This document shows, piece after piece, positions 42,960 to 64,000 of a stretch of DNA of 64,000 nucleotides (position 1 is the stretch's first letter; every line of letters begins with the position of its first letter). The stretch comes from Escherichia coli (lineage in GTDB: Bacteria; Pseudomonadota; Gammaproteobacteria; Enterobacterales; Enterobacteriaceae): NCBI RefSeq assembly GCF_003334815.1, contig NZ_QOWO01000013.1. One strand, given 5' to 3'. A program made the position numbers and the translations under genes. A model generated the notes under the pieces. The model was given only the letters and a program-made list of their open reading frames with translations. It was not told the DNA's origin and searched no databases.

Positions 42960-43060
42960 GGCAAAACTAAGAAATTTTCCAGGTTTTGCCTGGACGCTAT
43001 CTCAGGCCTGATTTGCTGCTGATTTTTACAATGCATGCCTCACGCAGGTATTCATTTCAG
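42960..43060 (+). promoter_or_regulatory. uhpT promoter region (UhpA-activated, CRP-assisted); boundaries approximate
   Basis: Intergenic uhpC-uhpT segment containing GCCTGGACGCTATCTCAGGCCTG repeat-like motifs upstream of the uhpT start; assignment is from locus knowledge. Confidence 0.45.
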
Positions 43061-43069
43061 GAGTAACCC

Positions 43070-44461
43070 ATGCTGGCTTTCTTAAACCAGGTTCGCAAGC
43101 CGACCCTGGACCTTCCGCTCGAAGTGCGGCGCAAAATGTGGTTCAAACCGTTCATGCAATCCTACCTGGTGGTCTTTATCGGCTACCTGACGATGTACCT
43201 GATTCGCAAGAACTTTAACATCGCGCAGAACGATATGATTTCGACCTACGGGTTGAGCATGACGCAGCTGGGGATGATCGGCCTGGGTTTCTCCATCACT
43301 TATGGCGTGGGTAAAACGCTGGTTTCCTACTACGCCGACGGCAAAAACACCAAACAATTCCTGCCGTTCATGCTGATCCTCTCTGCTATTTGTATGCTGG
43401 GCTTCAGTGCCAGTATGGGCAGCGGCTCGGTTAGCCTGTTCCTGATGATTGCCTTCTACGCCTTAAGCGGCTTTTTCCAGAGTACCGGCGGTTCGTGCAG
43501 TTACTCCACCATCACCAAATGGACGCCGCGTCGTAAACGCGGGACATTCCTCGGTTTCTGGAATATTTCTCACAACCTTGGCGGTGCAGGCGCAGCAGGT
43601 GTGGCGCTGTTCGGGGCAAATTACCTGTTCGATGGCCATGTCATCGGCATGTTTATCTTCCCGTCGATTATCGCGCTGATTGTCGGTTTTATCGGCCTGC
43701 GTTACGGCAGCGACTCCCCGGAATCTTATGGCCTCGGCAAAGCTGAAGAACTGTTCGGCGAGGAGATCAGCGAAGAGGACAAAGAGACAGAATCTACCGA
43801 TATGACCAAGTGGCAGATCTTTGTTGAGTATGTGCTGAAAAACAAAGTGATCTGGCTGCTGTGCTTCGCCAACATTTTCCTCTATGTGGTACGTATTGGT
43901 ATCGACCAGTGGTCAACCGTATACGCGTTCCAGGAACTGAAACTCTCTAAAGCGGTGGCGATTCAGGGCTTTACGCTGTTTGAAGCTGGTGCGCTGGTCG
44001 GTACGCTGCTGTGGGGCTGGCTCTCTGACCTGGCGAACGGTCGCCGTGGCCTGGTGGCCTGCATCGCGCTGGCGCTGATTATCGCCACGCTCGGTGTGTA
44101 TCAACATGCCAGTAACGAATATATCTATCTGGCTTCTCTCTTTGCGTTGGGTTTCCTGGTCTTTGGCCCGCAATTGTTGATTGGTGTGGCTGCTGTTGGC
44201 TTTGTACCTAAAAAAGCGATTGGCGCTGCCGATGGTATTAAAGGCACCTTTGCTTACCTGATTGGTGACAGCTTTGCCAAGTTAGGTCTGGGAATGATTG
44301 CCGATGGGACGCCGGTATTCGGCCTTACCGGCTGGGCAGGCACCTTCGCCGCGCTGGATATCGCCGCGATTGGTTGTATCTGCCTGATGGCGATAGTGGC
44401 GGTAATGGAAGAACGCAAAATCCGCCGCGAGAAAAAAATTCAGCAGTTGACAGTGGCATAA
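43070..44461 (+). CDS. uhpT: Hexose-6-phosphate:phosphate antiporter UhpT (MFS)
   Basis: 463-aa [52 protein letters not shown]... Confidence 0.95.
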
Positions 44462-44479
44462 ACGTAACTGGTGACTTTT

Positions 44480-44506
44480 GCCCGGCATGACGCCGGGCTT
44501 TTTTTA
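44480..44506. terminator. Terminator hairpin between convergent uhpT and ade
   Basis: GCCCGGCATGACGCCGGGC followed by TTTTTTT; sits between the two stop codons. Confidence 0.8.
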
Positions 44507-46273
44507 TTATTCCGTGACTTCCAGCGTAGTGAAGGCAAACTTCTCGCCATCAAATAGCCCCTGACTGGTTAGTTTTAGCGCGGGGATCACTGGCAGAGAA
44601 AGAAACGCCATCTGAATAAACGGCTCATCGGGTAACGGACCGCATTCACGGGCGGCGGCTTTCAAGGCGTCAATTTGTTCCGCCAGCGACTGCGCCGTGT
44701 CGGTGCTCATCAGCCCGGCAATGGGTAACGGCAGATGACTTTGTACCTGGCCGTTACGTACCACGCACAGCCCGCCGCCATCCTGAATCACCTGATTGAC
44801 CGCCAGCGCCATCTCTTCGGCACTGCGACCGATCACCACAATATTATGGCTGTCATGGCTGACCGTCGCAGCCAGCGCACCTTCATTCAGTCCAAAGCCG
44901 CCAAGCAAACCACAAGCCGGAGCCAGCCGTTGCCCGTAACGCTCAAGTACGGCAATAAAGCTCACATCATCGCGATCAAAACCATTTTCGCTGTAGACGC
45001 TGGAGTGGGAGTGCGTAATCAATTCGTTATGGATGACGTCAATGACCCGATAGCGTTTTCCGGGCGTAAATTGCAGGGCAAAGTCGCTGGCGGAAACTGG
45101 CTGGCGGGCAATGGTGTTGCCATATGGCGGAGCGGATTGTGCCAGTCTCGCCGACTCTTCCGCCTGTAAGGTTTGCGCATCAATCGGCTCGCCTTTCACC
45201 AGTACCTGCTGCACCGTGACCTTACGCGCATCGCTCAACAGGACGATATCGGCCTGCTTGCCGGGTGCCAGTAAGCCGAGGTGATTCAGACCAAAGTGGC
45301 GCGCCGTCGACCAGCTGGCGACGCGATATGCCACATGCAGCGGCACATTGTGTTGTTCGATCAGGCGGCGAATTAAGGCATCGATGTGTCCTTCATGGGC
45401 GATCTCCCACGGGTTACGGTCATCGGTACAGAGCATGCATTGCGGGCTGTTAAATTCGTTGATCAACGGTGCCAGCGCGTTGAGATTGCGGGCAGCGGAC
45501 CCTTCGCGGATCATCAACGACATGCCGAGTTGTAATTTCCGGCGTCCTTCTTCCAGCTGATAACTTTCGTGGCAGTTTTCAATACCCGCAGTAATATAGG
45601 CGTTAAGTTCTTTACCACCCAAACCCGGGCAGTGACCGTCCAGCGTCAGGTGGCGAAATGCATCCAGTTTATCGAGCAGCGCATTCTGCCCGCTAATTAC
45701 GCCAGGGTAGTCCATCATTTCTGCAAGGCCGGTAACCTGCGGATGGTCCCGCCAGGCGAGCATCTGTTCAAGGGTAAAACTGGCACCGTTAACATCGCAG
45801 CCTTCCAGGGCGGGTACGCAAGAGCTGACCTGTAAGTACTGGTTTTGCCTTGCCTGTTCGGCACAGCGGGCAAACCAGGCGAATCCGGCTTCGCCCATCA
45901 CGTTGACGATTTCATGAGGGTCGCAAATAACGGTCGTCAGGCCGCGCGGCAGGGTAGCGGTTTCAAAAGTGACCGGCGTCATCATGCTGGATTCAATATG
46001 CAGGTGAGCATCAATAAACCCTGGCACCGCCGTTGCGCCGCGAGCATCAATCCGCTGCAAAGCCGGAGCATCAGTGTATTCTGCGCCAACACCGGCAATG
46101 TAACGTCCTTTAATCACAATTGGGCCGGAAATTTCTCCGCCATTGATCAGGTCGAGAATAGAGACATTATCAATAATATAATCGGCAACAGCGTCGCCAC
46201 GGGAAACGGCTAACAATTCCTGGTATTCAGCCCGGCTAATGTGATGAAATTTATGGTTAATAGAATTATTCAT
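44507..46273 (-). CDS. ade: Adenine deaminase
   Basis: 588-aa [66 protein letters not shown]..., amidohydrolase family with the metal-binding [11 protein letters not shown] motif. Confidence 0.9.
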
Positions 46274-46447
46274 ATTTTTCTCATTTTGATTTTATCAATT
46301 TGATTATTATTTATCATAAAGAAACGTCGCGAGATTATTAAAGAATATCCATTAATGTGCAATTGAAATGTGATAATTATCACTGAACCGTTGTTGTCAT
46401 TTGTTTTACAAAAGCAAGGGATTAAATCTCCTCCAATGGACAAAAAA

Positions 46448-47782
46448 ATGAATAATGACAATACCGATTACGTGAGTAATGAATCAGGGACGCTTTCGCG
46501 ATTATTTAAACTACCTCAGCATGGGACCACCGTCCGCACAGAATTGATTGCGGGGATGACCACTTTTTTAACCATGGTGTACATCGTTTTTGTGAACCCG
46601 CAAATCCTCGGCGCGGCACAAATGGACCCGAAAGTGGTGTTTGTTACCACCTGTTTGATTGCCGGTATCGGCAGTATTGCGATGGGGATATTTGCTAACT
46701 TACCCGTGGCGCTGGCTCCGGCAATGGGGCTGAACGCCTTCTTTGCCTTCGTGGTCGTGGGGGCGATGGGCATCTCCTGGCAGACCGGGATGGGCGCAAT
46801 ATTCTGGGGCGCAGTTGGACTATTTTTGCTCACGCTGTTTCGTATCCGGTACTGGATGATCTCCAACATTCCCTTAAGTTTACGTATTGGTATCACCAGC
46901 GGAATTGGATTATTTATCGCCTTAATGGGATTAAAAAATACTGGCGTTATTGTCGCCAATAAAGACACGCTGGTGATGATTGGCGATTTAAGTTCTCACG
47001 GCGTGTTGTTAGGTATTTTAGGGTTTTTTATTATAACCGTGTTGTCATCACGTCATTTTCATGCCGCGGTGCTGGTTTCTATTGTGGTGACGTCTTGCTG
47101 TGGATTATTTTTCGGTGATGTTCATTTTAGCGGCGTCTATTCCATTCCGCCTGATATTAGCGGCGTCATTGGTGAAGTAGATTTGAGCGGCGCGTTAACA
47201 CTTGAACTCGCCGGTATCATTTTCTCCTTTATGCTGATCAACCTATTTGATTCATCAGGAACATTAATTGGTGTAACTGATAAAGCGGGCTTAATAGATG
47301 GTAACGGTAAATTCCCCAATATGAATAAGGCGCTGTATGTTGATAGCGTCAGTTCGGTGGCGGGTGCGTTTATCGGCACCTCGTCTGTTACTGCCTATAT
47401 TGAAAGTACTTCTGGTGTGGCAGTCGGTGGCCGCACGGGGCTGACTGCGGTTGTGGTTGGCGTTATGTTCCTGTTGGTTATGTTCTTCTCACCGCTGGTG
47501 GCGATAGTTCCTCCTTACGCAACCGCCGGAGCGTTAATCTTTGTTGGCGTGCTGATGACTTCGAGCCTGGCGCGCGTTAACTGGGATGATTTTACCGAAT
47601 CGGTGCCTGCGTTTATTACCACGGTGATGATGCCCTTTACTTTCTCGATCACCGAAGGGATTGCACTCGGCTTTATGTCGTACTGCATCATGAAAGTATG
47701 CACCGGGCGCTGGCGCGATCTGAACCTGTGTGTGGTGGTGGTCGCAGCTCTGTTTGCACTGAAGATTATTCTGGTGGATTAG
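46448..47782 (+). CDS. adeQ: Adenine permease (AzgA/NCS2 family), YicO
   Basis: ORF MNNDNTDYVSNESGTLSRLFKLPQHGTTVRTELIAGMTTFLTMVYIVFVNPQILG...; 444 aa from that start, divergent from ade. Confidence 0.85.
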   Translation: MNNDNTDYVSNESGTLSRLFKLPQHGTTVRTELIAGMTTFLTMVYIVFVNPQILGAAQMDPKVVFVTTCLIAGIGSIAMGIFANLPVALAPAMGLNAFFAFVVVGAMGISWQTGMGAIFWGAVGLFLLTLFRIRYWMISNIPLSLRIGITSGIGLFIALMGLKNTGVIVANKDTLVMIGDLSSHGVLLGILGFFIITVLSSRHFHAAVLVSIVVTSCCGLFFGDVHFSGVYSIPPDISGVIGEVDLSGALTLELAGIIFSFMLINLFDSSGTLIGVTDKAGLIDGNGKFPNMNKALYVDSVSSVAGAFIGTSSVTAYIESTSGVAVGGRTGLTAVVVGVMFLLVMFFSPLVAIVPPYATAGALIFVGVLMTSSLARVNWDDFTESVPAFITTVMMPFTFSITEGIALGFMSYCIMKVCTGRWRDLNLCVVVVAALFALKIILVD

Positions 47783-47834
47783 TAACTGGCGAGGGTTTCC
47801 AGATATCATGAGTTCTGATTACGCAGGAGAACTC

Positions 47835-48287
47835 ATGATCTGGATAATGCTCGCCACGCTGGCGGTAGTGTTTGTGGTTGGTTTTCGGGTGCTGACATCC
47901 GGGGCCAGAAAAGCGATTCGCCGTCTCAGCGATCGGCTGAACATCGATGTCGTACCCGTGGAGTCGATGGTCGATCAAATGGGAAAGTCAGCTGGTGACG
48001 AATTTTTACGTTATTTGCATCGTCCGGATGAGTCGCACCTGCAAAACGCCGCGCAGGTGTTGCTCATCTGGCAAATTGTCATTGTCGATGGTAGCGAACA
48101 GAACCTGCTGCAATGGCATCGGATTTTACAAAAAGCTCGCCTCGCCGCGCCGATTACCGACGCTCAGGTCAGGCTGGCGCTAGGTTTTCTGCGCGAAACC
48201 GAACCTGAAATGCAGGATATTAATGCTTTTCAGATGCGCTATAACGCGTTCTTTCAGCCTGCCGAGGGCGTTCACTGGTTGCATTGA
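47835..48287 (+). CDS. yicN: Uncharacterized protein YicN (DUF1198)
   Basis: ORF MIWIMLATLAVVFVVGFRVLTSGARKAIRRLSDRLNID...; 150 aa. Confidence 0.8.
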   Translation: MIWIMLATLAVVFVVGFRVLTSGARKAIRRLSDRLNIDVVPVESMVDQMGKSAGDEFLRYLHRPDESHLQNAAQVLLIWQIVIVDGSEQNLLQWHRILQKARLAAPITDAQVRLALGFLRETEPEMQDINAFQMRYNAFFQPAEGVHWLH

Positions 48288-48325
48288 AACCGTTTCGTCT
48301 TATCAGCCTACAGACCGCGCCTGAC

Positions 48326-48363
48326 CTGTCGGGTGGATAAGACGTTCACGCCGCATCCGGTAA
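48326..48363. repeat. REP element downstream of yicN
   Basis: GTCGGGTGGATAAGACGTTCACGCCGCATCCGGTAA. Confidence 0.7.
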
Positions 48364-48497
48364 TCTTTGCCCTGTTCCGTTTCGATCTTAACTCCAGCTC
48401 AAGCAACACCGTAAAAGTTGCAAAAACGTTAAATGCGTCACACATTTCAATGTTAAAGTGGTCGGCTTTTCCCCTGAAACATGCCACGGGTAACACC

Positions 48498-49688
48498 ATG
48501 AGTGAATTTATTGCCGAAAACCGCGGCGCGGATGCCATCACCCGACCGAACTGGTCAGCCGTTTTCTCGGTGGCGTTTTGTGTCGCCTGTCTGATTATCG
48601 TTGAGTTTTTGCCCGTCAGTTTGTTGACGCCAATGGCCCAGGATTTAGGCATTTCGGAAGGGGTTGCCGGGCAATCGGTGACCGTGACCGCCTTTGTGGC
48701 AATGTTTGCCAGTTTGTTTATTACCCAGACAATTCAGGCTACTGACCGCCGCTACGTTGTTATTTTGTTTGCCGTTTTGCTGACGCTCTCCTGCTTGCTG
48801 GTTTCCTTTGCTAACTCATTCAGTTTGCTTTTAATCGGTCGTGCCTGTCTGGGGCTGGCGCTGGGCGGGTTCTGGGCGATGTCGGCGTCGCTGACCATGC
48901 GTCTGGTGCCGCCGCGTACGGTGCCGAAGGCGCTGTCGGTGATCTTCGGCGCGGTTTCTATTGCGCTGGTGATTGCCGCGCCGTTGGGCAGTTTTTTAGG
49001 CGAGCTTATCGGTTGGCGCAATGTCTTTAATGCGGCGGCGGTGATGGGCGTGCTGTGTATTTTCTGGATTATCAAATCATTGCCTTCACTGCCAGGCGAA
49101 CCCTCGCATCAGAAACAAAATACTTTCCGCTTATTACAACGTCCGGGTGTGATGGCAGGGATGATCGCCATCTTCATGTCTTTCGCCGGGCAGTTTGCTT
49201 TCTTCACGTATATTCGCCCGGTGTATATGAACCTGGCGGGATTCGGCGTGGATGGCTTAACGCTGGTGCTGTTGAGTTTTGGTATCGCCAGCTTTATTGG
49301 TACGTCGCTTTCGTCGTTCATTCTTAAACGTTCGGTAAAACTGGCCTTAGCAGGCGCGCCGTTAATACTGGCTGTGAGTGCGTTGGTACTGACGTTGTGG
49401 GGAAGCGATAAAATCGTTGCTACCGGCGTGGCGATTATCTGGGGGCTAACTTTTGCATTGGTTCCCGTCGGCTGGTCAACGTGGATCACCCGCTCGCTGG
49501 CCGATCAGGCAGAAAAAGCCGGGTCTATTCAGGTGGCGGTTATTCAGCTTGCTAATACCTGTGGCGCGGCAATCGGCGGTTATGCGCTGGATAATATTGG
49601 TCTGACTTCGCCGTTGATGTTGTCCGGCACATTGATGTTGCTGACTGCATTGTTGGTTACTGCAAAGGTGAAAATGAAGAAATCCTGA
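48498..49688 (+). CDS. nepI: Purine ribonucleoside efflux pump NepI (MFS), YicM
   Basis: [58 protein letters not shown]...; 396 aa. The ORF-track 5' extension runs through the REP element and is not coding. Confidence 0.85.
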
Positions 49689-49728
49689 TATCAGGTAAAG
49701 AAGCGTTGGTCAGTAGTTGTTGCTGTTC

Positions 49729-50022
49729 TTACATATCCGGGCATTCTACCTTACCCAACGCTTCCCAATAATTGCTCTGATTATTACGTTCCATCGCCAC
49801 GATGGCCTCGCGTATATGTTGTTTATTGTTTTCATCTGACAACATTAACTTTTCCCACGCTTCATCTGATAATGACGCCTGTGGCGTGCAAATTTTACGT
49901 AAATCTTGTAATACCGTGGTTTTCTCTTTTGCGGACTGCAGTGAGCTAAAAGGCGACTCGGCGTATACGATGCCTGGCATAGCGAAAAAAGTGAAAATAA
50001 GCAGTAGTGTCGTTGGTTTCAT
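49729..50022 (-). CDS. yicS: Small secreted protein YicS
   Basis: 97-aa ORF with an N-terminal signal peptide MKPTTLLLIFTFFAMPGIVYA. Confidence 0.8.
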   Translation of the reverse strand: MKPTTLLLIFTFFAMPGIVYAESPFSSLQSAKEKTTVLQDLRKICTPQASLSDEAWEKLMLSDENNKQHIREAIVAMERNNQSNYWEALGKVECPDM

Positions 50023-50243
50023 GGATTCAACCTTTTACAAATGTGTATCGAATGAAGCATAAGTGTAGTTTGCTTTCATCGCTCTCATCATGCTGTACGA
50101 AACGCGCTTGCGTGGTCAGTAAGAAGTGCCAGACTTTATATTCCACTTTTATTCCTTTTTATTCTTATCGATAGCGTTTCGTTTTTTAAACCGCAGCGAC
50201 CTTACCGCTATAGTCAGGTAATCATTAATAAAAGGATAAAAAA

Positions 50244-51062
50244 ATGAAACTGACAACACATCATCTACGGACAGGGGCCGCATTATTGCTGGCCGGAATT
50301 CTGCTGGCAGGTTGCGACCAGAGTAGCAGCGATGCAAAACACATTAAAGTTGGCGTTATAAATGGCGCAGAACAAGATGTCGCGGAAGTCGCTAAAAAGG
50401 TGGCAAAAGAGAAATATGGCCTCGATGTTGAACTGGTAGGATTTAGCGGTTCGTTGCTACCGAACGATGCGACAAATCATGGCGAACTTGATGCGAATGT
50501 CTTCCAGCATCGACCCTTTCTTGAACAAGATAATCAGGCGCATGGTTATAAACTGGTAGCGGTGGGAAATACGTTTGTCTTCCCTATGGCGGGTTATTCC
50601 AAAAAAATCAAAACCGTGGCGCAAATAAAAGAAGGCGCGACAGTGGCGATCCCCAACGACCCGACCAACCTTGGTCGCGCACTTTTACTGTTGCAAAAAG
50701 AGAAGCTAATTACTCTGAAAGAGGGAAAAGGGTTATTACCTACCGCGCTGGATATAACCGATAATCCTCGTCATTTGCAGATTATGGAACTCGAGGGGGC
50801 GCAGCTCCCGCGCGTACTGGATGATCCCAAAGTTGATGTAGCGATTATCAGCACCACTTACATTCAGCAGACCGGGCTTTCTCCGGTGCACGACAGCGTA
50901 TTTATTGAAGATAAGAATTCGCCGTATGTGAATATTTTGGTGGCACGGGAAGATAATAAGAATGCAGAAAACGTGAAGGAATTTCTGCAATCTTATCAAT
51001 CACCCGAAGTCGCTAAAGCGGCAGAAACCATTTTTAACGGTGGCGCGGTGCCTGGCTGGTAA
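50244..51062 (+). CDS. nlpA: Lipoprotein 28 (methionine-binding lipoprotein)
   Basis: 272-aa ORF MKLTTHHLRTGAALLLAGILLAGCDQSSSDAKHIKVGV... with a lipobox LAGC. Confidence 0.9.
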   Translation: MKLTTHHLRTGAALLLAGILLAGCDQSSSDAKHIKVGVINGAEQDVAEVAKKVAKEKYGLDVELVGFSGSLLPNDATNHGELDANVFQHRPFLEQDNQAHGYKLVAVGNTFVFPMAGYSKKIKTVAQIKEGATVAIPNDPTNLGRALLLLQKEKLITLKEGKGLLPTALDITDNPRHLQIMELEGAQLPRVLDDPKVDVAIISTTYIQQTGLSPVHDSVFIEDKNSPYVNILVAREDNKNAENVKEFLQSYQSPEVAKAAETIFNGGAVPGW

Positions 51063-51065
51063 TTC

Positions 51066-51989
51066 TCACTTATGCCGCGCCGGACGATTTATTTTTCTGG
51101 CGCGGCGACGGGAATCCATTGAAATCAAAATCACCGATGACAGAATCAGCAGCGTTCCCAGCCAGTCCGGTAATGTGAACGTGATCCCCAGCAACAGCAA
51201 AGAGAGTAGCGCGCTACTTAATGGTTCTGCACAGCTCAAAATGCTGGCTTTTGGACCGCCAATTAATTGTGCTCCTTTCAGGTACAGACTAAATGTCAGG
51301 GACGTACCAATGACCACCAAATAAAAAAACGCCAGAATCAAACTGCCGTTAACGACAAAGTTTGTTCCTTGTCTGGCATAAAAAGGCAACAGAATCAGAC
51401 CGCCAATCAGCATACTCCAGCCGACGACTGGTAACGTGCCATAGCGGGCAATTAGCGTTGAGGGATAGGTGGTATAGAATGCAGCAGCAAATGCCGAGGC
51501 AATGCCCCAGAACAACGCGGCAGGAGAGATCGATAATGACGTCGGATTACCGTGTGTCACCAATAAAAAAGTCCCGACCAGCGATGTCAAAATAGCGCAG
51601 AAAACCAGAATGCCCGGGCGCGATTTACGCACCAGTGAGAACCAGGCGACGATAATCGTCGGTGAGAGGAATTGCAGCACCGTTGCCGTGGCTGCGTTCG
51701 ATTTTTCGATGGTTAGCAAAAAAGTGAGCTGTACAGTTAGCGCGCCAACCACGGAAAAAATCAGCAGGCTAATGGCATCTTTATGATTGTTAATAATAGA
51801 AAAGATTTTATCGCCATGAACAAATGACAGCGTCAGTAGAATCAAACCGGCGAATATCAAACGCGTCATAGTCAAAAACTGCGACGACATCTGGCTTTGC
51901 TCCATGATGTATTGCGCGCAGACCCCTGAACTTCCCCACAACACGGCGGCAATCAGAACGTTCAGCATCCCCTTTCTGGTGGAACCCAT
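51066..51989 (-). CDS. yicL: EamA/DMT-family transporter YicL
   Basis: 307-aa polytopic [34 protein letters not shown]... Confidence 0.85.
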
Positions 51990-52099
51990 TTTTCCCTCTG
52001 CATACTGTTTTGTCGTTTATGTATGCAGGCATGATAGCAAAAATGGCGAGGATGGCTCTGTTTGCGCCACGCCGATTTTTCTTAGCCCAGACTGGTGAG

Positions 52100-53284
52100 C
52101 TAAATATCTTTAATAAACAGCAGGCAAATCATCGCAATACCCAACATCCCTATCGCCAGCCAGAACAACGCATGGTAGCTCCAGATTTCAACCATAATTC
52201 CGTCAACAGAGCCGGCGATAATCCAGCCGACGCGTGAAGTATTTGCATATAACGTTGTCGCAGAGCCTATTTTTTCAGGCATCAAGTCCTGAAAATAAAG
52301 CATGCCGATACCACAGAGAATACCAAGGAAGATGGCATTAAGAATTTGCAATTCCAGCTCAACCGCCGGAGTCGTCGCCATGAGTACGCTGGCGTAAAAA
52401 CACATTCCACTCACGATAGCAATGAGCATTAATAGTCGCTTGCCAATACGTTTCATGTAATAGCCTGCGATTAACATCATCGGAATTTCCAGACCGGCAG
52501 CGATACCAATCATTTCTCCAGCCAGTTTATCGGTTAGATGCAGTTCATCAATAATAAATAGCGGCATATTTATCATGTAGAGATTATTCGCCGCCCACAT
52601 CATTGAACAGACCACAAAAAGTAGCCGCGTATCCCGCTTCCTGTGGGTGGAGGGTAAAATTTCTACGGGTTGGGTAACGACAGGAATATTTCTTTGTATT
52701 GATGGCAAAAACAACCAGACTATCAGTCCGCAAACAACAAATGCGATGGCAGCGGTGAGATACATCACTTTAAAACTAAATCCCATTGCCAGTTCATAAG
52801 CGAGCGGTGGCCCGATAACCCAGGCAAGCGAGATCTGAGCACGTAAAAATGTACTGAACATGACCGTCTCACGGCCTGTTCTGTCGGCGTGTTCACGGGC
52901 GAGGGCGAACATTTGCGGGTTTGCGGTGGAAGCAAAACTACTCAGAAGTACGCCCGTTGAGAGGAGAATGAAGTAGTTGCGATTCCACGCAAAAAGCGTG
53001 CAGGCCAGCACTCCAAATAAGCAACATAGCAGAATCAGTAATTTACGGTCGCCTTGTTTATCGGAGTGCCTTGCCAGAAATTGACTGACCAGAATTCCCA
53101 TAATAGCGCTACCGGTGAAGAAAAAACCTACCATTATAGGACGGGCTTTCAGTTCATCTGCGAGGAATATACTTAGGGTAGGAGTCTGAAGAGCGCCCGC
53201 AATACCCGTCAGAAAGGCGACAAGTAAAAATGCCGCGGCAGTGAGATCAAGTATTTTTGATGGAGTGGTAGCCGTTTTTTGCAT
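52100..53284 (-). CDS. setC: Sugar efflux transporter SetC (MFS)
   Basis: 394-aa ORF MQKTATTPSKILDLTAAAFLLVAFLTGIAGALQTPTLSIFLADELKARP... Confidence 0.85.
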   Translation of the reverse strand: MQKTATTPSKILDLTAAAFLLVAFLTGIAGALQTPTLSIFLADELKARPIMVGFFFTGSAIMGILVSQFLARHSDKQGDRKLLILLCCLFGVLACTLFAWNRNYFILLSTGVLLSSFASTANPQMFALAREHADRTGRETVMFSTFLRAQISLAWVIGPPLAYELAMGFSFKVMYLTAAIAFVVCGLIVWLFLPSIQRNIPVVTQPVEILPSTHRKRDTRLLFVVCSMMWAANNLYMINMPLFIIDELHLTDKLAGEMIGIAAGLEIPMMLIAGYYMKRIGKRLLMLIAIVSGMCFYASVLMATTPAVELELQILNAIFLGILCGIGMLYFQDLMPEKIGSATTLYANTSRVGWIIAGSVDGIMVEIWSYHALFWLAIGMLGIAMICLLFIKDI

Positions 53285-53920
53285 TCTTCTGAATCACCGG
53301 GCGAAAAAATATAACTGAGTTACAAATAAGTACCAGTCGAATGAGTATTGTATTAAGAATTTTTGAGTATCGCTGATACAACCAGAAAGCAATGCTAGCG
53401 CAATATTATAGGGCCAGCAATTGAGATTATTAGTAAAAGCATGTTAAGAATTAATTACCGAATTTATATATTAATTATAGTAAGGCAATGAGCTATTTTT
53501 GATAGTAAAAATAAAACAAGTTGATTTGATATATTAAATGAACAAATTAATCTTGATGGCAGTCTGATTATTGGTGAAGTTTATAGTCAGTTTTTTTCGC
53601 CAGCGGTTAAAGAAATAGAATAGTCGTATAAAAAAGGGTGTTCTGGGGCGAGTAAAACAACATCTTCACCTTAATGGCGATACAGTTGGCTGAGAGTCAG
53701 CAGGGGGGCAAATCACCTGCAAATAAACACGGCGCATACTGGCGTGAATATCGCGGATGCGTTCGAGGACAGAAGAACCGACAGGCGGATTCTTCAGCCG
53801 CTCATCGTCCATCACAAAACCTTAGACCAGGTATTCCTGAAGCCGATTGAATATTGAGCAGTAGAAAATATCTGGATTGACAGTATTACAAGGGGTTGGA
53901 GAACGTCAGGAGAGGCATTT

Positions 53921-54015
53921 TGGCGGAAGATCACAGGAGTCGAACCTGCCCGGGACCGCTGGCGGCCCCAACTGGATTTGAAGTCCAGCCGCCTCACCGG
54001 AGACGACGATCTTCC
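53921..54015 (-). tRNA. selC: tRNA-Sec (selenocysteine tRNA, anticodon UCA)
   Basis: Reverse complement of 53921..54015 is GGAAGATCGTCGTCTCCGGTGAGGCGGCTGGACTTCAAATCCAGTTGGGGCCGCCAGCGGTCCCGGGCAGGTTCGACTCCTGTGATCTTCCGCCA, 95 nt with the long acceptor and extra arm typical of tRNA-Sec and a 3' CCA. Confidence 0.95.
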
Positions 54016-54307
54016 GCGCCTCGATTGCTACATGGAGGCGGGGCGCATTATAGCTACTTCCTTGAGTTTCTACATCCCCCAGATCAGTTTTTTCCGCCTA
54101 ATACACGCAGCGTATTATCACGAAAGCATTATAGTTCATATAAAACCCATATTTTACAATGATATATGAGCGGAATTAACGCTACCACGATCACATAAAA
54201 CAAGAATCATAAATTAATAACCAGATATCGGAATATTCGCTCTCACAGGGATGGTTTACAAAATGCGTTATCGGTCTCAGCACCCCTATAGCATCAAGGA
54301 AAAGCAG

Positions 54308-55695
54308 ATGAAGAGTGAAGTGTTGTCCGTTAAAGAGAAAATTGGTTATGGCATGGGAGACGCCGCCAGCCACATTATTTTCGATAACGTAATGTTATAT
54401 ATGATGTTCTTTTATACCGATATTTTTGGCATTCCTGCCGGTTTTGTCGGAACCATGTTTTTGGTCGCTCGTGCACTGGATGCGATTTCCGATCCTTGCA
54501 TGGGGTTGTTGGCCGATCGAACGCGCTCTCGCTGGGGTAAATTTCGTCCGTGGGTACTGTTTGGCGCACTGCCATTCGGGATCGTCTGTGTACTGGCCTA
54601 TAGCACGCCAGATCTCAGTATGAACGGCAAAATGATCTATGCAGCAATTACTTACACCCTACTTACCTTACCTTACTTTATACCGTCGTCAATATCCCTT
54701 ACTGCGCATTGGGTGGTGTAATCACCAATGACCCGACTCAGCGTATCTCGCTGCAATCCTGGCGTTTTGTGCTGGCGACCGCGGGAGGCATGCTTTCTAC
54801 TGTTCTGATGATGCCACTGGTTAATTTAATTGGCGGTGATAATAAACCACTCGGTTTCCAGGGCGGTATCGCGGTCCTTTCCGTGGTGGCATTCATGATG
54901 CTGGCATTTTGTTTCTTCACCACTAAAGAACGCGTTGAAGCACCACCTACAACAACGTCTATGCGGGAAGATTTACGTGATATCTGGCAAAACGACCAGT
55001 GGCGGATTGTCGGTTTACTAACCATTTTCAATATCCTGGCGGTGTGCGTACGCGGTGGGGCGATGATGTATTACGTCACATGGATTTTGGGCACGCCGGA
55101 AGTGTTTGTCGCTTTTCTCACCACTTATTGCGTGGGTAACCTGATTGGTTCCGCACTGGCAAAACCTCTGACCGACTGGAAATGTAAAGTCACTATCTTC
55201 TGGTGGACGAACGCCCTGCTGGCAGTGATTAGCCTCGCGATGTTCTTTGTTCCCATGCAGGCCAGCATCACTATGTTTGTCTTCATCTTCGTGATTGGTG
55301 TGTTGCATCAACTGGTGACACCTATCCAGTGGGTAATGATGTCCGATACCGTCGACTACGGCGAGTGGTGCAATGGTAAACGCCTGACCGGGATCAGTTT
55401 TGCTGGCACGCTGTTTGTGCTCAAACTGGGGTTGGCCTTCGGCGGCGCTCTTATCGGCTGGATGCTGGCTTATGGCGGATATGATGCGGCAGAAAAAGCG
55501 CAGAACAGCGCCACGATTAGCATCATTATTGCGCTATTCACGATTGTTCCGGCGATCTGTTATTTGCTGAGCGCGATTATCGCTAAACGCTACTACTCAC
55601 TCACGACGCACAATCTGAAAACCGTTATGGAACAGCTGGCTCAGGGTAAACGCCGTTGCCAGCAACAATTCACCTCTCAAGAAGTGCAGAACTAA
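54308..55695 (+). pseudogene. yicJ: GPH-family sugar:cation symporter gene yicJ, frameshifted by an extra CTTAC unit
   Basis: The homolog is split between ORF 54251..54721 (frame 2) and ORF 54709..55695 (frame 1). Start-to-stop length from MKSEVLSVKEK is 1388 nt, which is 5 nt more than a 460-aa coding length; the frame switch falls on three tandem CTTAC units at 54662..54676. Confidence 0.75.
54662..54676 (+). repeat. Pentanucleotide tandem repeat (CTTAC)x3 inside yicJ
   Basis: cttac cttac cttac read directly from the sequence; deleting one unit restores a continuous reading ...AAITYTLLTLLYTVVNIPYCALGGVITNDPTQ... Confidence 0.85.
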
Positions 55696-55704
55696 GGAAC
55701 GGCA

Positions 55705-58023
55705 ATGAAAATTAGCGATGGAAACTGGTTGATTCAACCTGGCCTCAATTTGATTCACCCGCTTCAGGTGTTCGAGGTTGAACAGCAGGATAATGAAATG
55801 GTGGTCTATGCTGCCCCCCGTGATGTGCGTGAACGTACCTGGCAGCTTGATACGCCTTTATTTACGTTGCGCTTTTTCTCCCCACAGGAAGGTATTGTCG
55901 GTGTGCGGATTGAGCATTTTCAGGGGGCGCTGAATAACGGTCCTCATTATCCGCTCAATATTTTGCAGGACGTGAAGGTCACAATCGAAAACACAGAACG
56001 TTATGCTGAGTTTAAAAGTGGCAACTTAAGCGCGCGTGTCAGCAAAGGTGAGTTCTGGTCACTGGATTTTCTGCGCAACGGCGAACGTATTACCGGTAGT
56101 CAGGTGAAAAATAATGGCTACGTGCAGGACACGAATAATCAACGCAATTATATGTTTGAGCGGCTTGATCTTGGCGTTGGCGAAACAGTTTACGGTCTGG
56201 GAGAGCGCTTTACTGCCCTGGTGCGCAATGGCCAGACGGTAGAGACCTGGAACCGGGACGGCGGCACAAGTACTGAACAGGCGTATAAAAATATCCCGTT
56301 CTACATGACTAACCGTGGTTATGGGGTACTGGTCAATCATCCCCAGTGTGTCTCTTTTGAAGTGGGATCGGAGAAAGTCTCCAAAGTGCAGTTCAGCGTT
56401 GAGAGTGAATATCTCGAATACTTTGTTATCGACGGCCCGACGCCGAAAGCGGTACTTGATCGTTATACCCGCTTTACTGGTCGTCCGGCGCTGCCGCCCG
56501 CGTGGTCCTTCGGCCTGTGGCTAACCACTTCATTTACCACCAACTACGACGAAGCGACGGTAAACAGCTTTATCGATGGTATGGCGGAACGCAATCTGCC
56601 GCTGCATGTTTTCCACTTTGACTGTTTCTGGATGAAAGCCTTCCAGTGGTGCGATTTTGAGTGGGACCCGCTGACTTTCCCTGACCCGGAAGGGATGATC
56701 CGCCGCCTGAAAGCGAAAGGACTGAAAATCTGCGTCTGGATTAACCCCTATATCGGTCAAAAATCCCCCGTCTTTAAAGAGTTACAAGAGAAAGGCTATT
56801 TACTCAAACGCCCGGACGGTTCGCTATGGCAGTGGGATAAATGGCAGCCAGGTCTGGCGATTTATGACTTTACCAATCCGGATGCCTGCAAATGGTACGC
56901 CGACAAACTGAAAGGTCTGGTCGCGATGGGCGTTGATTGCTTTAAGACCGACTTTGGCGAACGTATCCCAACTGATGTTCAGTGGTTTGACGGTTCCGAT
57001 CCGCAGAAAATGCATAACCATTATGCGTACATCTACAACGAACTGGTGTGGAACGTGCTCAAGGACACCGTTGGTGAGGAAGAAGCTGTCTTGTTTGCCC
57101 GCTCGGCCTCCGTCGGTGCGCAGAAATTCCCGGTACACTGGGGTGGCGATTGTTACGCTAACTACGAATCAATGGCGGAAAGCCTGCGCGGTGGTTTGTC
57201 TATTGGCCTTTCAGGTTTTGGCTTCTGGAGCCACGATATCGGCGGCTTTGAAAATACCGCTCCGGCGCACGTTTACAAACGCTGGTGCGCGTTTGGTTTG
57301 CTCTCCAGCCATAGCCGTTTACACGGTAGCAAATCTTATCGTGTGCCGTGGGCCTACGATGATGAGTCCTGTGATGTGGTGCGCTTCTTCACGCAACTGA
57401 AATGCCGCATGATGCCGTATCTGTATCGTGAAGCTGCGCGTGCGAACGCGCGGGGTACGCCGATGATGCGGGCCATGATGATGGAGTTCCCGGACGATCC
57501 GGCTTGTGATTACCTTGACCGTCAATACATGTTAGGCGACAACGTGATGGTTGCGCCGGTGTTCACTGAAGCGGGCGATGTGCAGTTCTACCTGCCGGAA
57601 GGTCGCTGGACACACCTGTGGCACAACGATGAACTCGACGGTAGTCGCTGGCATAAACAGCAGCACGGCTTCCTGAGTCTGCCCGTTTATGTGCGTGATA
57701 ACACTCTACTGGCGCTGGGCAACAACGATCAACGTCCCGATTACGTGTGGCACGAAGGCACGGCATTCCACCTCTTTAATCTGCAAGACGGGCATGAAGC
57801 CGTCTGTGAAGTGCCCGCTGCTGACGGATCGGTGATCTTTACTTTAAAAGCAGCACGTACTGGCAACACGATTACTGTGACTGGTGCGGGCGAGGCGAAG
57901 AACTGGACACTGTGCCTGCGCAATGTTGTGAAAGTAAATGGTCTGCAAGACGGTTCGCAGGCTGAAAGTGAGCAGGGGCTGGTGGTGAAGCCTCAAGGGA
58001 ATGCGCTGACAATTACGTTGTAA
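55705..58023 (+). CDS. yicI: Alpha-xylosidase (glycoside hydrolase family 31)
   Basis: 772-aa [41 protein letters not shown]... with GH31 catalytic region (WINPY, KTDFGE). Confidence 0.9.
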
Positions 58024-58037
58024 TCTATTGATGGAAT

Positions 58038-58064
58038 GCCGGGTACGTCTGAGTCGTACCCGGC
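58038..58064. terminator. Inverted repeat between convergent yicI and yicH (putative terminator, no clear T-run)
   Basis: GCCGGGTACGTCTGAGTCGTACCCGGC, a 10-bp perfect stem. Confidence 0.4.
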
Positions 58065-58075
58065 GAGATTGATGT

Positions 58076-59785
58076 TTACCGCACCGGCTCCGTCGATGTA
58101 ACTTCACCGCTGGAAACGATGCCAGCATTCATGGTTTGAGTCACTTGCTGCTTTGCGGCGTTCACGGCATGCAATTGCCCGCTAACCGTAGGTTTCAACG
58201 GGACATTGGCCTGAATATCGCCACTGGCGGTAAGCTGAATATTGCCGTCGCCAGTCAACGGTAATTCAGGCCATCCCCACTGTTGCAAAATATTCACCGG
58301 CACACCGCGTCCATTCAGGCTGATATGTGTCTGACGTTGTGGCGTTTGTGAAACACTGGCGGTGGCTTCCAGAATGCCTTTTTCAGTAAATGCACTCAGT
58401 TCGCTGATATTCACCGTGCTGCTGTTGGCGGTCAGCGCCAGCGACGGGCGACGAACATCAACACGATTGAATGTCGCGGCGGCGGCATTCAGATTCGCCG
58501 AGCCACTCCAGACGCCCCATTTATGATCGGTAACCAGCGTCAGGTTGGCACCGTAACCATCGAGCGCGGTGAGCTGCCACGGGAAGTCAGGGTCGATATC
58601 AATGATCAGATTGCGGCTGGCGCTAAATCTCTTCAGTTGCAGGCTGTTTAACCAACCGGGTGTCGTTTCCATCCACAACTGTTGCCAGTTTTTCGGCAAG
58701 GTATATTCCAGCCCGGCAATTGCCGCATCATCAAGGATCAACGTTTTCCCGTCACGCAGCCAGTTCCCTGACGTTCTGACCATACCCCCTTCCCAGCGGC
58801 TGGTGAACTGGCGCAGCGCTACGCCCTGCGGGGAAAATTCCGTGTTTATAATCGGGTCAAATAAATGCAGCGAACCATAAATGAACTCGCTAGCGTTCAT
58901 CGACAGTTTGCCTTCCTGTGTCTGCCAGTCATCTTTACTGAAGGTCATGTTGCGCAAGCTGAGATCGAGGTCGGTCACCGCCCAGTCCGGACCTTGCAAA
59001 CGAGCATCGATCACTTCCAGGCGACCAATCTGCAACGACGGGACAGAGCGTAATGGCGCAAAGAAGTCGGTTAGCGATTTTTCGCTTTGTAGACGTATAT
59101 CCGCCATGCGCAGGTTTTCCACTTGCCAGCTGCCGTCGGCGTTACGCTGCGCGTTTCCGGTTAATGTCCCGCGGGCGATGTCGGCACCCAGGTTAGTCAG
59201 CGTAACGCGATCGTTATCAATACTGCCTTCAATCAGTACATTGGTGGCAGGAACATCATTGAGCGAAAGCGATCCGGCACTAAACTGAATCTGCGCCTTC
59301 GTACCCAGCACTTTACCGGCTTTTGGTGACCACGGAACTACGCCGCCATTTACCCGCTGCGCGCTCAGTTTCCATTCGCTATTCGGGCTATTAAACGCCA
59401 TATCACGCAGTTGCAGACGATCGGCTTTGAACGGTAGCGGCGCGGTCTGGTCGGTGAGATTCAGCGTCCCGTTTTCCAGCAGGATGGTATCGACATGGCG
59501 TGGTTCGGTCAGTTGCCGACTGCTTAGCGCAATGTCGACACTTTTGGCCACCAGGGTCGCGGGCTGGCCATCACGACCAAACGTGACGTTCTCCAGCACG
59601 ATATGAGATGGCGCGGAAAAACGGTGATCCATCGCCCCGAAGGCCAGATGATAGTCGCTATTCTCGGAAACCCATGCGCTGATATGTTCTGCTCCCCAGC
59701 GGGTTTGCAGAAGAAAATAGAGGCCAGCGATCGCCACTAACAGAGCGATGAGAATGTAGAGAAGCAGCTTCCCAATAAATTTCAT
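58076..59785 (-). CDS. yicH: AsmA-family protein YicH
   Basis: ORF MKFIGKLLLYILIALLVAIAGLYFLLQTRWGAEHISAWVSENSDYHL...; 569 aa from the MKFI start. Confidence 0.85.
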   Translation of the reverse strand: MKFIGKLLLYILIALLVAIAGLYFLLQTRWGAEHISAWVSENSDYHLAFGAMDHRFSAPSHIVLENVTFGRDGQPATLVAKSVDIALSSRQLTEPRHVDTILLENGTLNLTDQTAPLPFKADRLQLRDMAFNSPNSEWKLSAQRVNGGVVPWSPKAGKVLGTKAQIQFSAGSLSLNDVPATNVLIEGSIDNDRVTLTNLGADIARGTLTGNAQRNADGSWQVENLRMADIRLQSEKSLTDFFAPLRSVPSLQIGRLEVIDARLQGPDWAVTDLDLSLRNMTFSKDDWQTQEGKLSMNASEFIYGSLHLFDPIINTEFSPQGVALRQFTSRWEGGMVRTSGNWLRDGKTLILDDAAIAGLEYTLPKNWQQLWMETTPGWLNSLQLKRFSASRNLIIDIDPDFPWQLTALDGYGANLTLVTDHKWGVWSGSANLNAAAATFNRVDVRRPSLALTANSSTVNISELSAFTEKGILEATASVSQTPQRQTHISLNGRGVPVNILQQWGWPELPLTGDGNIQLTASGDIQANVPLKPTVSGQLHAVNAAKQQVTQTMNAGIVSSGEVTSTEPVR

Positions 59786-59873
59786 GGTCTTCCATCCCGT
59801 GAAATGCACATAAGGGAGTTATGCACGATTTACGCGCAATCCTCAAGGCGGGAATGGTTAAAGAGGTGAGACT

Positions 59874-59898
59874 GCGGCGGTAATTATCTTACCGCCGC
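59874..59898 (-). terminator. Putative terminator hairpin downstream of xanP
   Basis: GCGGCGGTAATTATCTTACCGCCGC, just 3' of the xanP stop. Confidence 0.4.
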
Positions 59899-59905
59899 CA
59901 GTGAA

Positions 59906-61297
59906 TTACTGTTTTTCTGGTGGGAAAATCAGATTCAGCACGATGGCAGTAATACCGCCCGCGGCGATCCCGGAGGAGAGCAGGTTTTTCAGCCATTCAG
60001 GGGCAAACTGCAAAATCAGCGGCTGCTGAGACACGCCCAGACCAACCGCCAGCGACAGCGCGATAATCAGAATCGCCCGACGGTTCAGCGGCTCACGAGA
60101 AACGATACGCACACCGGAGGCGGCGATGGTGCCAAACATTACAAGCGTTGCGCCGCCCAGAACCGGTTCTGGAATGTGTTGTACAAAACCGCTCACTGCC
60201 GGGAACAGACCCAGCACGATCAACATCAGCGCGACGACAAAACCGACATAGCGGCTGGCAACACCAGTCAACTGGATCACTCCGTTGTTTTGCCCGAAGC
60301 AGGAGTTCGGGAAGGTGTTAAACACCGCCGAAACAAACGAGTTCAGGCCGTTTGCCAGCACGCCGCCTTTCAGGCGTTTCATGTACAGCGGACCGGACAC
60401 TGGCTGTTCGGAAACGTCAGAGGTCGCCGTGATATCGCCAATGGTTTCCAGCGAAGTGATCATAAAGACCAGCATCAGCGGCAGCAGCAGACTCCATTCA
60501 ATGCCAAGACCGTAATAGAGCGGCGTTGGCACCATAATCAGTTCTTGCGTCATAGGTTCGTTGCTTTCTGGCAACATGCCCATAAACCACGCCAGCGCAT
60601 ATCCGGCCGCCATCGCAATTACCAGTGAGGCCACGCGTAAGTAAGGGTTACGTTGACGGTTAAGCAGGATAATTAAGGCTAAGACCACGCCTGCCAGCAG
60701 CAGATTTTTCGGTGCGCCGAAGGTGTTATCGCTCATGGCTGCGTAACCGCCGCCAATGGACGTTAACCCAACCTGAATTAGCGACAGGCCGATAATCATC
60801 ACCACAACGCCAGAAACCAGCGGCGTAATAATGCGGCGCGCCAGATGCAGAACGCGGGAGATCACCATCTCGGTGCAACTTGCCAGCATCAACGTGCCGA
60901 ACAAAGCCGCCATCATGGTAGGAACATCAGCACCACCGGTTTTCAGCGCGGTACCGCCCATAATCAGCGGGGCAACAAAGTTGAAGCTGGTGCCCTGAAT
61001 AGACAACAGCCCGGAGCCAACCGGACCCCAGGCCTTAATTTGAATAATCGATGCCACACCGGAGGCAAACAGCGACATACTAATAATGTGTTGCGTGTCT
61101 TGTGCCGGTAAACCCAGCGCCTGGCAGATTAATAGCGCTGGCGTGATCACCGCAACGAACATCGCCAGCAGATGCTGACAGGCGGCAAACAGGGTTTGAG
61201 GAAGCGGCGGACGATCTTCAAGACGGTAAATCAGTTCGCTGTTTTGAGTCTGCGCAACCGGTTGCGCATTTTCTGACTCGAGGGTGGAAACAGACAT
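59906..61297 (-). CDS. xanP: Xanthine permease (NCS2/NAT family), YicE
   Basis: [59 protein letters not shown]...; 463 aa. Confidence 0.9.
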
Positions 61298-61576
61298 CGA
61301 AAACAATCCCGTGGTAGCAAAGCGGGCATTTTAGCTGACCGAAAGAGAAAAGCAAACGTTTGCCACATCCTCATCTAAATATTTAAATGAGATAAATGCA
61401 CTTTTTTATATAACTTTTGGTATTTTTCTGCTTAAAATCCATGCCATTTGTTCATTAACAGCTGAGAATTTGACCCAGGAAAGCATAACTCGATACCCGT
61501 CATAGTTCATGAAGTTGCCACTGCGCGATGAAGTATGACGAGTATGAAAGAGTGATGCGGATACAAAGGAGTAACT

Positions 61577-62782
61577 ATGTTTCATCTCGATACTTTAGCA
61601 ACGCTTGTTGCCGCAACGCTGACGTTGCTGCTCGGGCGTAAGTTGGTCCATTCCGTCTCCTTTTTGAAGAAATACACCATACCGGAACCTGTTGCGGGTG
61701 GTTTGTTGGTGGCGCTGGCGCTACTAGTACTGAAAAAAAGCATGGGCTGGGAAGTCAACTTTGATATGTCCCTGCGCGATCCGTTAATGCTGGCTTTCTT
61801 CGCCACCATTGGCCTGAACGCCAACATTGCCAGTTTGCGTGCCGGTGGGCGTGTGGTTGGCATCTTCTTGATTGTGGTTGTTGGTCTGTTGGTGATGCAA
61901 AATGCCATTGGCATTGGTATGGCTAGCTTGTTAGGGCTTGATCCGCTGATGGGGCTGTTGGCCGGTTCTATTACGCTTTCCGGCGGTCACGGTACGGGCG
62001 CTGCGTGGAGTAAATTGTTCATTGAACGTTATGGCTTCACCAATGCGACGGAAGTGGCGATGGCCTGTGCAACGTTCGGTCTGGTGCTGGGCGGCTTGAT
62101 TGGCGGTCCGGTGGCGCGCTATCTGGTGAAACACTCCACCACGCCGAACGGTATTCCGGATGACCAGGAAGTCCCGACGGCGTTTGAAAAGCCGGATGTG
62201 GGACGCATGATCACCTCGTTGGTGCTGATTGAAACTATCGCGCTGATTGCTATCTGCCTGACGGTGGGGAAAATTGTTGCGCAACTTTTGGCTGGCACTG
62301 CTTTTGAACTGCCGACCTTCGTCTGTGTACTGTTTGTTGGCGTGATTCTGAGCAACGGTCTGTCAATAATGGGCTTTTACCGCGTCTTTGAGCGTGCGGT
62401 ATCCGTGCTGGGTAACGTAAGCTTGTCGTTGTTCCTGGCGATGGCGTTGATGGGGCTGAAACTGTGGGAGCTGGCTTCGCTGGCGCTGCCGATGCTGGCG
62501 ATTCTGGTGGTACAGACCATCTTCATGGCGTTGTATGCCATCTTCGTTACCTGGCGCATGATGGGCAAAAACTACGATGCGGCAGTGCTGGCTGCGGGTC
62601 ACTGTGGTTTTGGCCTCGGTGCAACGCCAACGGCAATCGCCAACATGCAGGCGATCACTGAACGCTTTGGCCCGTCGCACATGGCGTTTTTGGTGGTGCC
62701 GATGGTCGGTGCGTTCTTTATCGATATCGTCAATGCGCTGGTAATTAAGTTGTATTTGATGTTGCCGATTTTTGCCGGTTAA
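61577..62782 (+). CDS. gltS: Sodium/glutamate symporter
   Basis: 401-aa ORF MFHLDTLATLVAATLTLLLGRKLVHSVSFLKKYTIPEPVAGGLLVALALLVLKK... Confidence 0.9.
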   Translation: MFHLDTLATLVAATLTLLLGRKLVHSVSFLKKYTIPEPVAGGLLVALALLVLKKSMGWEVNFDMSLRDPLMLAFFATIGLNANIASLRAGGRVVGIFLIVVVGLLVMQNAIGIGMASLLGLDPLMGLLAGSITLSGGHGTGAAWSKLFIERYGFTNATEVAMACATFGLVLGGLIGGPVARYLVKHSTTPNGIPDDQEVPTAFEKPDVGRMITSLVLIETIALIAICLTVGKIVAQLLAGTAFELPTFVCVLFVGVILSNGLSIMGFYRVFERAVSVLGNVSLSLFLAMALMGLKLWELASLALPMLAILVVQTIFMALYAIFVTWRMMGKNYDAAVLAAGHCGFGLGATPTAIANMQAITERFGPSHMAFLVVPMVGAFFIDIVNALVIKLYLMLPIFAG

Positions 62783-62825
62783 CCGATGAAGCGGCGGTAG
62801 AAGTGCCGCCGCAACAAAGACAAAT

Positions 62826-62907
62826 GCCTGATACGCTTCGCTTATCAAGCCTGCGTATTGATTCATAATTTATTGAATTTGTAGGGTGATGAATCGCATC
62901 CGGCAGG
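62826..62907. repeat. BIME/REP elements between gltS and recG
   Basis: GCCTGATACGCTTCGCTTATCAAGCCTGC and GTAGGGTGATGAATCGCATCCGGCAGG, joined by a linker (TTGATTCATAATTTATTGAATTTGTAGG) similar to the linker in the gyrB-proximal BIME. Confidence 0.6.
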
Positions 62908-62950
62908 AAGGTAGGGTAACCTGAAATGGCGGTCTTCTCACTGCCGCCTT

Positions 62951-64000
62951 TTACGCATTCGAGTAACGTTCCGTCTCCGGCATCCAGCGTTCTATCAGGG
63001 CTTTTGCCTGTTGTGGGTAACGTTCGTGAATATGGCGTGCCAGGCGCTGAACTTCCGGGATCATCGCCTGATCGCGCAGTAAATCCGCCACTTTAAATTC
63101 AGCATTACCCGTCTGACGCGTGCCTAACAATTCGCCAGGGCCGCGAATCTCCAGATCTTTTTGCGCAATCACAAAACCGTCGTTACTGTCGCGCAGCACT
63201 TGCAGGCGAATTTGCGCCGTTTTAGAAAGCGGCGTTTTGTAGAGCAGCACGCAGTGAGAAGCCACCGCGCCACGACCTACGCGCCCGCGCAGCTGGTGTA
63301 ACTGCGCCAGACCCAGACGCTCCGGGTTTTCGATAATCATCAGACTGGCGTTAGGCACATCAACGCCGACTTCAATAACGGTTGTGGCAACCAGCAGGTG
63401 TAGCTCACCTTGTTTAAACGACGCCATCACCGCCTGTTTCTCGGCAGGTTTCATCCGCCCGTGTACCAGGCCAACGTTCAACTCTGGTAGCGCCAGTTTC
63501 AACTCTTCCCAGGTAGCTTCCGCCGCCTGCGCTTCCAGCAATTCCGACTCTTCAATCAACGTACAAACCCAGTATGCCTGACGACCTTCAGTTATGCAGG
63601 CGTGGTGCACGCGGTCAATGATGTCGGTACGGCGGGTATCAGGAATAGCGACCGTAGTCACTGGCGTGCGGCCTGGCGGCAGCTCATCTATCACCGAGGT
63701 ATCGAGATCGGCATACGCAGTCATTGCCAGCGTGCGGGGGATCGGCGTGGCGGTCATGATCAACTGATGCGGATGGAAGCCCTGCTGCTGGCCTTTCTCC
63801 CACAATGCCAGACGCTGATGCACGCCAAAACGATGCTGTTCGTCGATAATCACCAGCGCCAGGCCGTTAAACTGCACCTGTTCCTGGAAGATGGCGTGTG
63901 TACCGACAATCATCTGCACCTGACCGCTGGCGATGGCTTCCTGCTGTGCCAGCCGTGCTTTACCTTTCTGCTTACCGGCGAGCCAGCCCACTTCGATACC
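62951..64000 (-). CDS. recG: ATP-dependent DNA helicase RecG (3' portion; 5' end lies beyond the window)
   Basis: ORF continues to the window edge; has the DEQHRFGV (DExH) and TATPIPRT helicase motifs and the C-terminus ...IERWMPETERYSNA. Confidence 0.9.
   Translation of the reverse strand, partial: GIEVGWLAGKQKGKARLAQQEAIASGQVQMIVGTHAIFQEQVQFNGLALVIIDEQHRFGVHQRLALWEKGQQQGFHPHQLIMTATPIPRTLAMTAYADLDTSVIDELPPGRTPVTTVAIPDTRRTDIIDRVHHACITEGRQAYWVCTLIEESELLEAQAAEATWEELKLALPELNVGLVHGRMKPAEKQAVMASFKQGELHLLVATTVIEVGVDVPNASLMIIENPERLGLAQLHQLRGRVGRGAVASHCVLLYKTPLSKTAQIRLQVLRDSNDGFVIAQKDLEIRGPGELLGTRQTGNAEFKVADLLRDQAMIPEVQRLARHIHERYPQQAKALIERWMPETERYSNA

Follow-up and report, generated by a model that had tools for sequence, protein, structure and literature searches.

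In the window, which is the whole 64-kb stretch of Escherichia coli DNA analysed here, the genes selC, yicJ, yicI and yicH follow one another in the order also found in K-12, and the yicJ-yicI order is kept in KE58 and O111. The selC gene for tRNA-Sec (53921..54015, minus strand) lies upstream of yicJ, a layout that is likewise annotated in K-12, KE58 and O111. The selC site, an island integration site, is empty in the window, as it is in K-12, and a short rhuM remnant is annotated in relatives at the place corresponding to 53812..54100. The yicJ pseudogene, a GPH-family symporter gene recognised by the NF008526 profile, occupies 54308..55695 on the plus strand, and its start at 54308 is the equivalent of the PGAP start in K-12, KE58 and O111. 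The alpha-xylosidase gene yicI (55705..58023, plus strand), identified from the list of open reading frames (ORFs) and the NF007940 equivalog profile (1433.3 bits, where the cutoff is 606), lies 9 nt 3' of the yicJ stop, encodes 772 aa and is intact.

The frame break in yicJ

In the ORF list, yicJ is represented by two entries whose frames differ, 54251..54721 and 54709..55695. The former measures 156 aa if read from an in-frame ATG further upstream and 137 aa if read from the MKSEVL start at 54308. Counted from 54308, the N-terminal fragment (54308..54721, plus strand) consists of 121 native residues followed by a 16-residue out-of-frame tail, PYFIPSSISLTAHWVV, which ends at a premature TAA (54719..54721). 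The C-terminal ORF (54709..55695, plus strand), a predicted ORF only, runs from a TTG for 328 aa in the native yicJ frame and corresponds to residues 133-460. Residues 122-132 (LYTVVNIPYCA) are native in neither fragment, and the rest of yicJ, beyond the premature stop, is undecayed.

The frame changes at a (CTTAC)3 tandem repeat on the plus strand (54662..54676), the extra unit of which constitutes the frameshift, K-12-type genes having (CTTAC)2. In the window the repeat stands in the context ACCCTA CTTAC CTTAC CTTAC TTTATACC, or, with longer flanks, ATTACTTACACCCTA CTTAC CTTAC CTTAC TTTATACCGTCG. Comparison with K-12 yicJ places the insertion at gene position 354 (ins@354:CTTAC), with the repeat at gene positions 355..369, and the distance from start to stop is 1388 nt (54308 to 55695), compared with 1383 nt in both K-12 and KE58. 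When one CTTAC unit is removed, the gene encodes a 460-aa protein with the reading TLLTLLYTVVNIPYCALGG, and its DNA becomes identical to yicJ of KE58, whose YicJ protein is the same as that of K-12 (WP_000834439.1).

On NF008526, the YicJ equivalog profile with a cutoff of 836, the repaired protein reaches 1055.9 bits with residues 1-460. As encoded, the N-terminal fragment scores 279.9 bits with residues 1-125 and the C-terminal one 735.1 bits at profile positions 133-460, both below the cutoff. The yicJ of the window is a disrupted member of the YicJ family (NF008526, TIGR00792), that is, a pseudogene. The original prediction had described a GPH-family yicJ homolog upstream of yicI, split between these two frames at the repeat, 5 nt longer than the 1383 nt expected for a 460-aa protein and made continuous by the removal of one unit; its positions match the sequence and the ORF list throughout, and its expected length matches the reference genes. 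Existing records call the window-type allele as two CDSs, P0016 (137 aa) and P0001 (328 aa). The annotation should instead read frameshifted yicJ pseudogene, not two separate 'transporter' CDSs.

Genomic background and local sequence

The whole window differs from KE58 by 7 SNPs, and within 40000..64000 a single 5-nt gap is the only difference, with 0 mismatches. Against K-12 MG1655 there are 11 SNPs, and the CTTAC insertion is the single indel over 63.9 kb. With so few SNPs and the single indel, the mutation is recent, and the background of the strain is K-12-like, of phylogroup-A type. The absence of a second indel in 63.9 kb also speaks against an assembly prone to errors in general. It agrees with the claim of the original prediction that yicJ is the only gene in the window to depart from an intact K-12-type gene, to which a footnote is added by a PTS transporter gene (about 26634..28250) that is interrupted in K-12 and intact here. 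At position 27738 the window has C, within Gln codon 369 of this gene, where K-12 MG1655 has T; the gene is intact in the window and in KE58 (WP_000952141.1) and is a pseudogene with an internal stop in K-12. In KE58 as in K-12, the adjoining CDS (about 28250..29064) carries the annotation 'hypothetical protein, frameshifted', and since the window does not differ from either of them there, it shares this older pseudogene.

At the left end, window positions 1..75 do not align to K-12 or KE58, and the alignment begins at 76, in the tnaA-tnaB intergenic region. The 75 nt match a multi-copy element present on chromosomes and plasmids in 1,876 of the 5,426 E. coli genomes, and their sequence is recognisable as an end of IS10, which suggests that an IS is inserted between tnaA and tnaB, with the contig break located there.

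In the 64-kb window, (CTTAC)3 is the sole perfect pentanucleotide repeat of three units, about 0.06 being expected by chance. Two-unit pentanucleotide repeats number 73, with about 62 expected; they occur at the chance rate, so that the triple is explained by the duplication of an unremarkable pre-existing two-unit repeat. The surroundings are rich in TTAC, with copies at 54648, 54652, 54663, 54668 and 54673, i.e. five within 30 nt, an arrangement that would suit misalignment. The repeat itself encodes Leu-Thr-Leu-Leu within a transmembrane helix.

Distribution of the repeat alleles

When 5,426 complete RefSeq E. coli genomes are searched with the gene by megablast, yicJ is found in 5,421, with a 99.6% match over the 1383-nt span in K-12 and many other genomes. 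With a probe of 121 nt that has the repeat at its centre, (CTTAC)3 is found in none of these 5,421 genomes, and intact reference genes carry two units, as the original prediction had supposed when it proposed counting them. The probe matches over its full 121 nt in one genome, that of O111:H8 strain 7-58 72A, and over 116 nt in the other genomes listed. In the O111:H8 strain, yicJ (NZ_CP077499.1, KP538_RS00480) is marked by PGAP as a 'frameshifted' pseudogene. Like the gene of the window, it is lengthened by a tandem duplication of 5 nt within the TTAC-rich stretch and yields a 137-aa N-terminal fragment with the stop at the same place. Unlike it, the duplicated unit is TTACT, positioned 6 nt downstream (CTTAC CTTAC TTTAC), and the haplotype is B1-type, with 7 further differences. 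Judged by these differences, the TTACT duplication is a separate event from the CTTAC duplication of the window. The TTACT allele is also present in contig L019 (protein P0018).

The truncated 137-aa product, with its allele-specific tail TLPYFIPSSISLTAHWVV, has an exact match, P0016, on 8 contigs from independent samples. The records comprise NCBI CAM9259390.1 and GDS71144.1 together with several Logan assemblies built from independent runs, and the identical allele is present in runs SRR18481740, ERR9716617, DRR223649 and SRR12495246. All carriers contain (CTTAC)3 in their DNA, and they are spread over at least three yicJ-yicI haplotypes. Over the 3.4 kb of yicJ-yicI, mismatches to the window number 0 in L004 (GCA_965212685.1), 2 in L005, 8 in each of L006 and L008, and 79 in L007, whose haplotype is given as differing at 77 sites; being identical to the window, L004 was not counted as independent confirmation. 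The left flanks of the carriers vary as well, with setC adjoining selC in some and an integrase in others. In L005 and L007 the left flank has a phage-type integrase beside selC, i.e. an island is inserted at the tRNA in some carriers, and the integrase of L005 is immediately followed by uhpA/uhpB-like genes.

In L007, the repeat (355..369) is bracketed by private SNPs at positions 330 and 378 of the gene, 25 nt upstream and 9 nt downstream of it, so closely that no ordinary recombination tract could have imported the allele, and this copy therefore arose independently. In the B1-type pair L006 and L008, 736 nt separate the nearest distinguishing SNPs; the sequences make an independent origin likely for this pair, and acquisition of the allele by recombination is possible. 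Taken over the haplotypes, at least three independent origins of (CTTAC)3 are suggested. A single clone or a single artefact behind all occurrences was considered and rejected, since the carriers show as many as 79 mismatches over 3.4 kb and L007 has its private SNPs. The same 5-nt expansion has thus had separate origins in E. coli lineages that are unrelated to each other. It is a minor case, taken from nature, of slippage recurring at a two-unit repeat, and caution is advised against the use of the allele as a clonal marker.

A contraction to (CTTAC)1 is present in two metagenome contigs (protein P0017), and no four-unit (CTTAC)4 allele is on record. In contig counts, the wild type reaches at least 1000, the 3-unit allele 8 and the 1-unit allele 2. 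The 328-aa C-terminal ORF (P0001) occurs on 358 contigs; the notion that these reflect a common (CTTAC)3 allele was discarded, as the DNA reveals other lesions in most of them. Among these is delC348 in yicJ (L009, L017 and L018). A further deletion, delT353, lies on a K-12-identical haplotype (L012, L013 and L015, the last from the complete genome CP138407.1), and delT381 lies on a 16-mismatch haplotype (L010, L011 and 7 similar places). A nonsense mutation affects codon 131 in L016. Together, the other inactivating alleles (L009-L018) span yicJ positions 348-393, just upstream of codon 133. IS1 insertions within yicJ are found in other genomes (H2, H3).

Within about 50 nt, the collected lesions thus include (CTTAC)3, the TTACT duplication, the CTTAC deletion, three 1-nt deletions and a nonsense codon. 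A lesion must lie shortly before codon 133 to be found in a search by the 328-aa ORF, so the clustering is mostly a matter of ascertainment, and clustering obtained from this look-up is no evidence for a hot spot. Little credence is therefore given to the idea that the 35-nt TTAC-rich stretch (codons ~116-128) is a true slippage hot spot and that loss of yicJ is repeatedly favoured in some gut niches. Were it correct, the loss might, for example, avoid harmful glycoside uptake, and the perfect-repeat alleles would act as low-frequency reversible off-switches. Inactivating alleles at the site are very rare.

Origin and consequences of the frameshift

The yicJ of the window is very likely a recent loss-of-function pseudogene, produced on a K-12-like background by a slipped-strand gain of one CTTAC in (CTTAC)2, with yicI left intact. 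The slippage step is read from its sequence outcome: one CTTAC would have been added to the (CTTAC)2 direct repeat in yicJ codons 118-122 through slipped-strand mispairing at replication. The resulting +5 nt shifts the frame after Leu121, so that 16 wrong residues are read before the TAA. Were one unit to be lost, the exact wild-type sequence would be regained, and the change may in this sense be reversible.

Of the two origins offered by the original prediction, a genuine mutation and an error of sequencing or assembly, the former is favoured, since the identical allele recurs in independent assemblies on different haplotypes; (CTTAC)3 is most likely a slipped-strand duplication that is real, rare and recurrent, rather than an artefact of assembly. 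An error confined to this assembly, with a normal yicJ in the organism, is considered improbable. Typical platform errors are homopolymer indels, and a clean 5-nt tandem duplication is atypical of them. The 15-nt repeat is, moreover, far shorter than usual reads or assembly k-mers, the window has no other indel relative to K-12, and the same allele is found in independent runs and in GDS71144.1, with varied haplotypes and flanks. The error reading does draw on the proneness of short tandem repeats to errors, on the presence of the allele in 0 complete RefSeq genomes and on L004, which is identical to the window and maybe not independent of it. Assembly errors are also known to create spurious pseudogenes, and many annotated pseudogenes are artefacts (PMC11017572).

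If the repeat were a phase-variation (contingency) switch, yicJ would be turned on and off by the gain and loss of units. Alleles of one, two and three units do all exist in nature, the expansion recurs on different backgrounds, and a change from three units to two would restore the gene exactly. The tract has, however, only 2-3 units; the +5 form occurs in 1 of 5,421 complete genomes and (CTTAC)3 in none of them, the wild type predominates on contigs (at least 1000, vs 8 with three units and 2 with one), and the repeat simply encodes Leu-Thr-Leu-Leu in a transmembrane helix. Known contingency loci have long, highly polymorphic tracts. With a tract this short and a population this nearly monomorphic, the switch was set aside as very improbable. 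The chance is smaller still, close to nil, that the frameshift is corrected in expression, by programmed +1 ribosomal frameshifting or transcriptional slippage, to give YicJ with two additional residues. Nothing specific speaks for such recoding beyond the low protein levels reported for some apparent pseudogenes (PMC9122581). The shifted allele is absent from essentially all relatives and the homologues are in a single frame; an unconserved allele implies no selection for a recoding signal. Inspection of 54640..54730 revealed no recognisable shift site or stimulator, with neither a homopolymer run for transcriptional slippage nor a stop or rare codon accompanied by an upstream Shine-Dalgarno-like stimulator. 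Two extra residues in helix IV, beside those aligned with the MelB sugar site, would also probably be harmful. Recoding was accordingly dropped, the form being absent in relatives and recoding features lacking at the site.

Under slipped-strand duplication, the product of the N-terminal fragment would comprise the first ~3.5 transmembrane helices and lack the helix-IV segment formed by residues 122-132, and no ribosome-binding site is evident for the remaining 328 codons. Repaired YicJ aligns with MelB (4m64) over residues 6-446 (E=1.2e-55), with homology across the 12-helix core, and YicJ residues 122-132 align with MelB residues 119-129, TYTIMDIPFWS. This MelB segment holds the sugar-binding residues Tyr120, Asp124 and Trp128. 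As the aligned helix-IV segment is removed, the transporter is very probably dead, and the strain is predicted to be without YicJ-mediated uptake of the substrate of the YicI alpha-xylosidase.

The expression of yicI may be lowered by polarity across ~985 nt of untranslated yicJ mRNA. Upstream of its ATG, yicI has its own AAGGA, a Shine-Dalgarno-like sequence, which makes transcriptional polarity likelier than a changed translational coupling, and Rho-dependent polarity on yicI would be plausible. A consensus promoter scan of the region returns 0 promoter-like sites, none even upstream of yicJ, and so has no bearing on the expression of yicI. Terminator-like hairpins in the region number 7, within the chance range (4.5 +/- 2.1 expected). 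A weak one is located on the plus strand at 54749..54764, 28 nt past the premature stop, and consists of 5 pairs followed by TTTTGTGC.

In the literature on yicJ, nothing is found about the (CTTAC)3 allele, and as regards yicJ the cefiderocol paper lists missense variants of the Klebsiella gene only. The allele is already known in kind, its products being deposited and its sister allele flagged by PGAP. Its importance beyond annotation is small, and the independent origin on divergent backgrounds is mildly notable. Relative to K-12 yicJ (b3657; WP_000834439.1, putative alpha-xyloside symporter), the DNA is identical save for the 5-nt insertion, the extra CTTAC breaking the frame after codon 121. 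The Neisseria opa genes, with pentanucleotide CTCTT repeats, are simple-sequence-repeat contingency loci. The yicJ site resembles them in having a pentanucleotide repeat in a coding region, the unit number of which sets the frame, but differs in its low number of units, its almost monomorphic state and the absence of any sign of selection for switching. The closer likeness is to Streisinger-type slippage at short direct repeats, in that the window gains exactly one unit beside identical units, and the complementary one-unit loss and recurrence at the same site are both seen at yicJ. In conclusion, with the mechanism read from sequence, the yicJ allele is a textbook slipped-strand duplication frameshift pseudogene, and nothing sets it apart from others of this kind.
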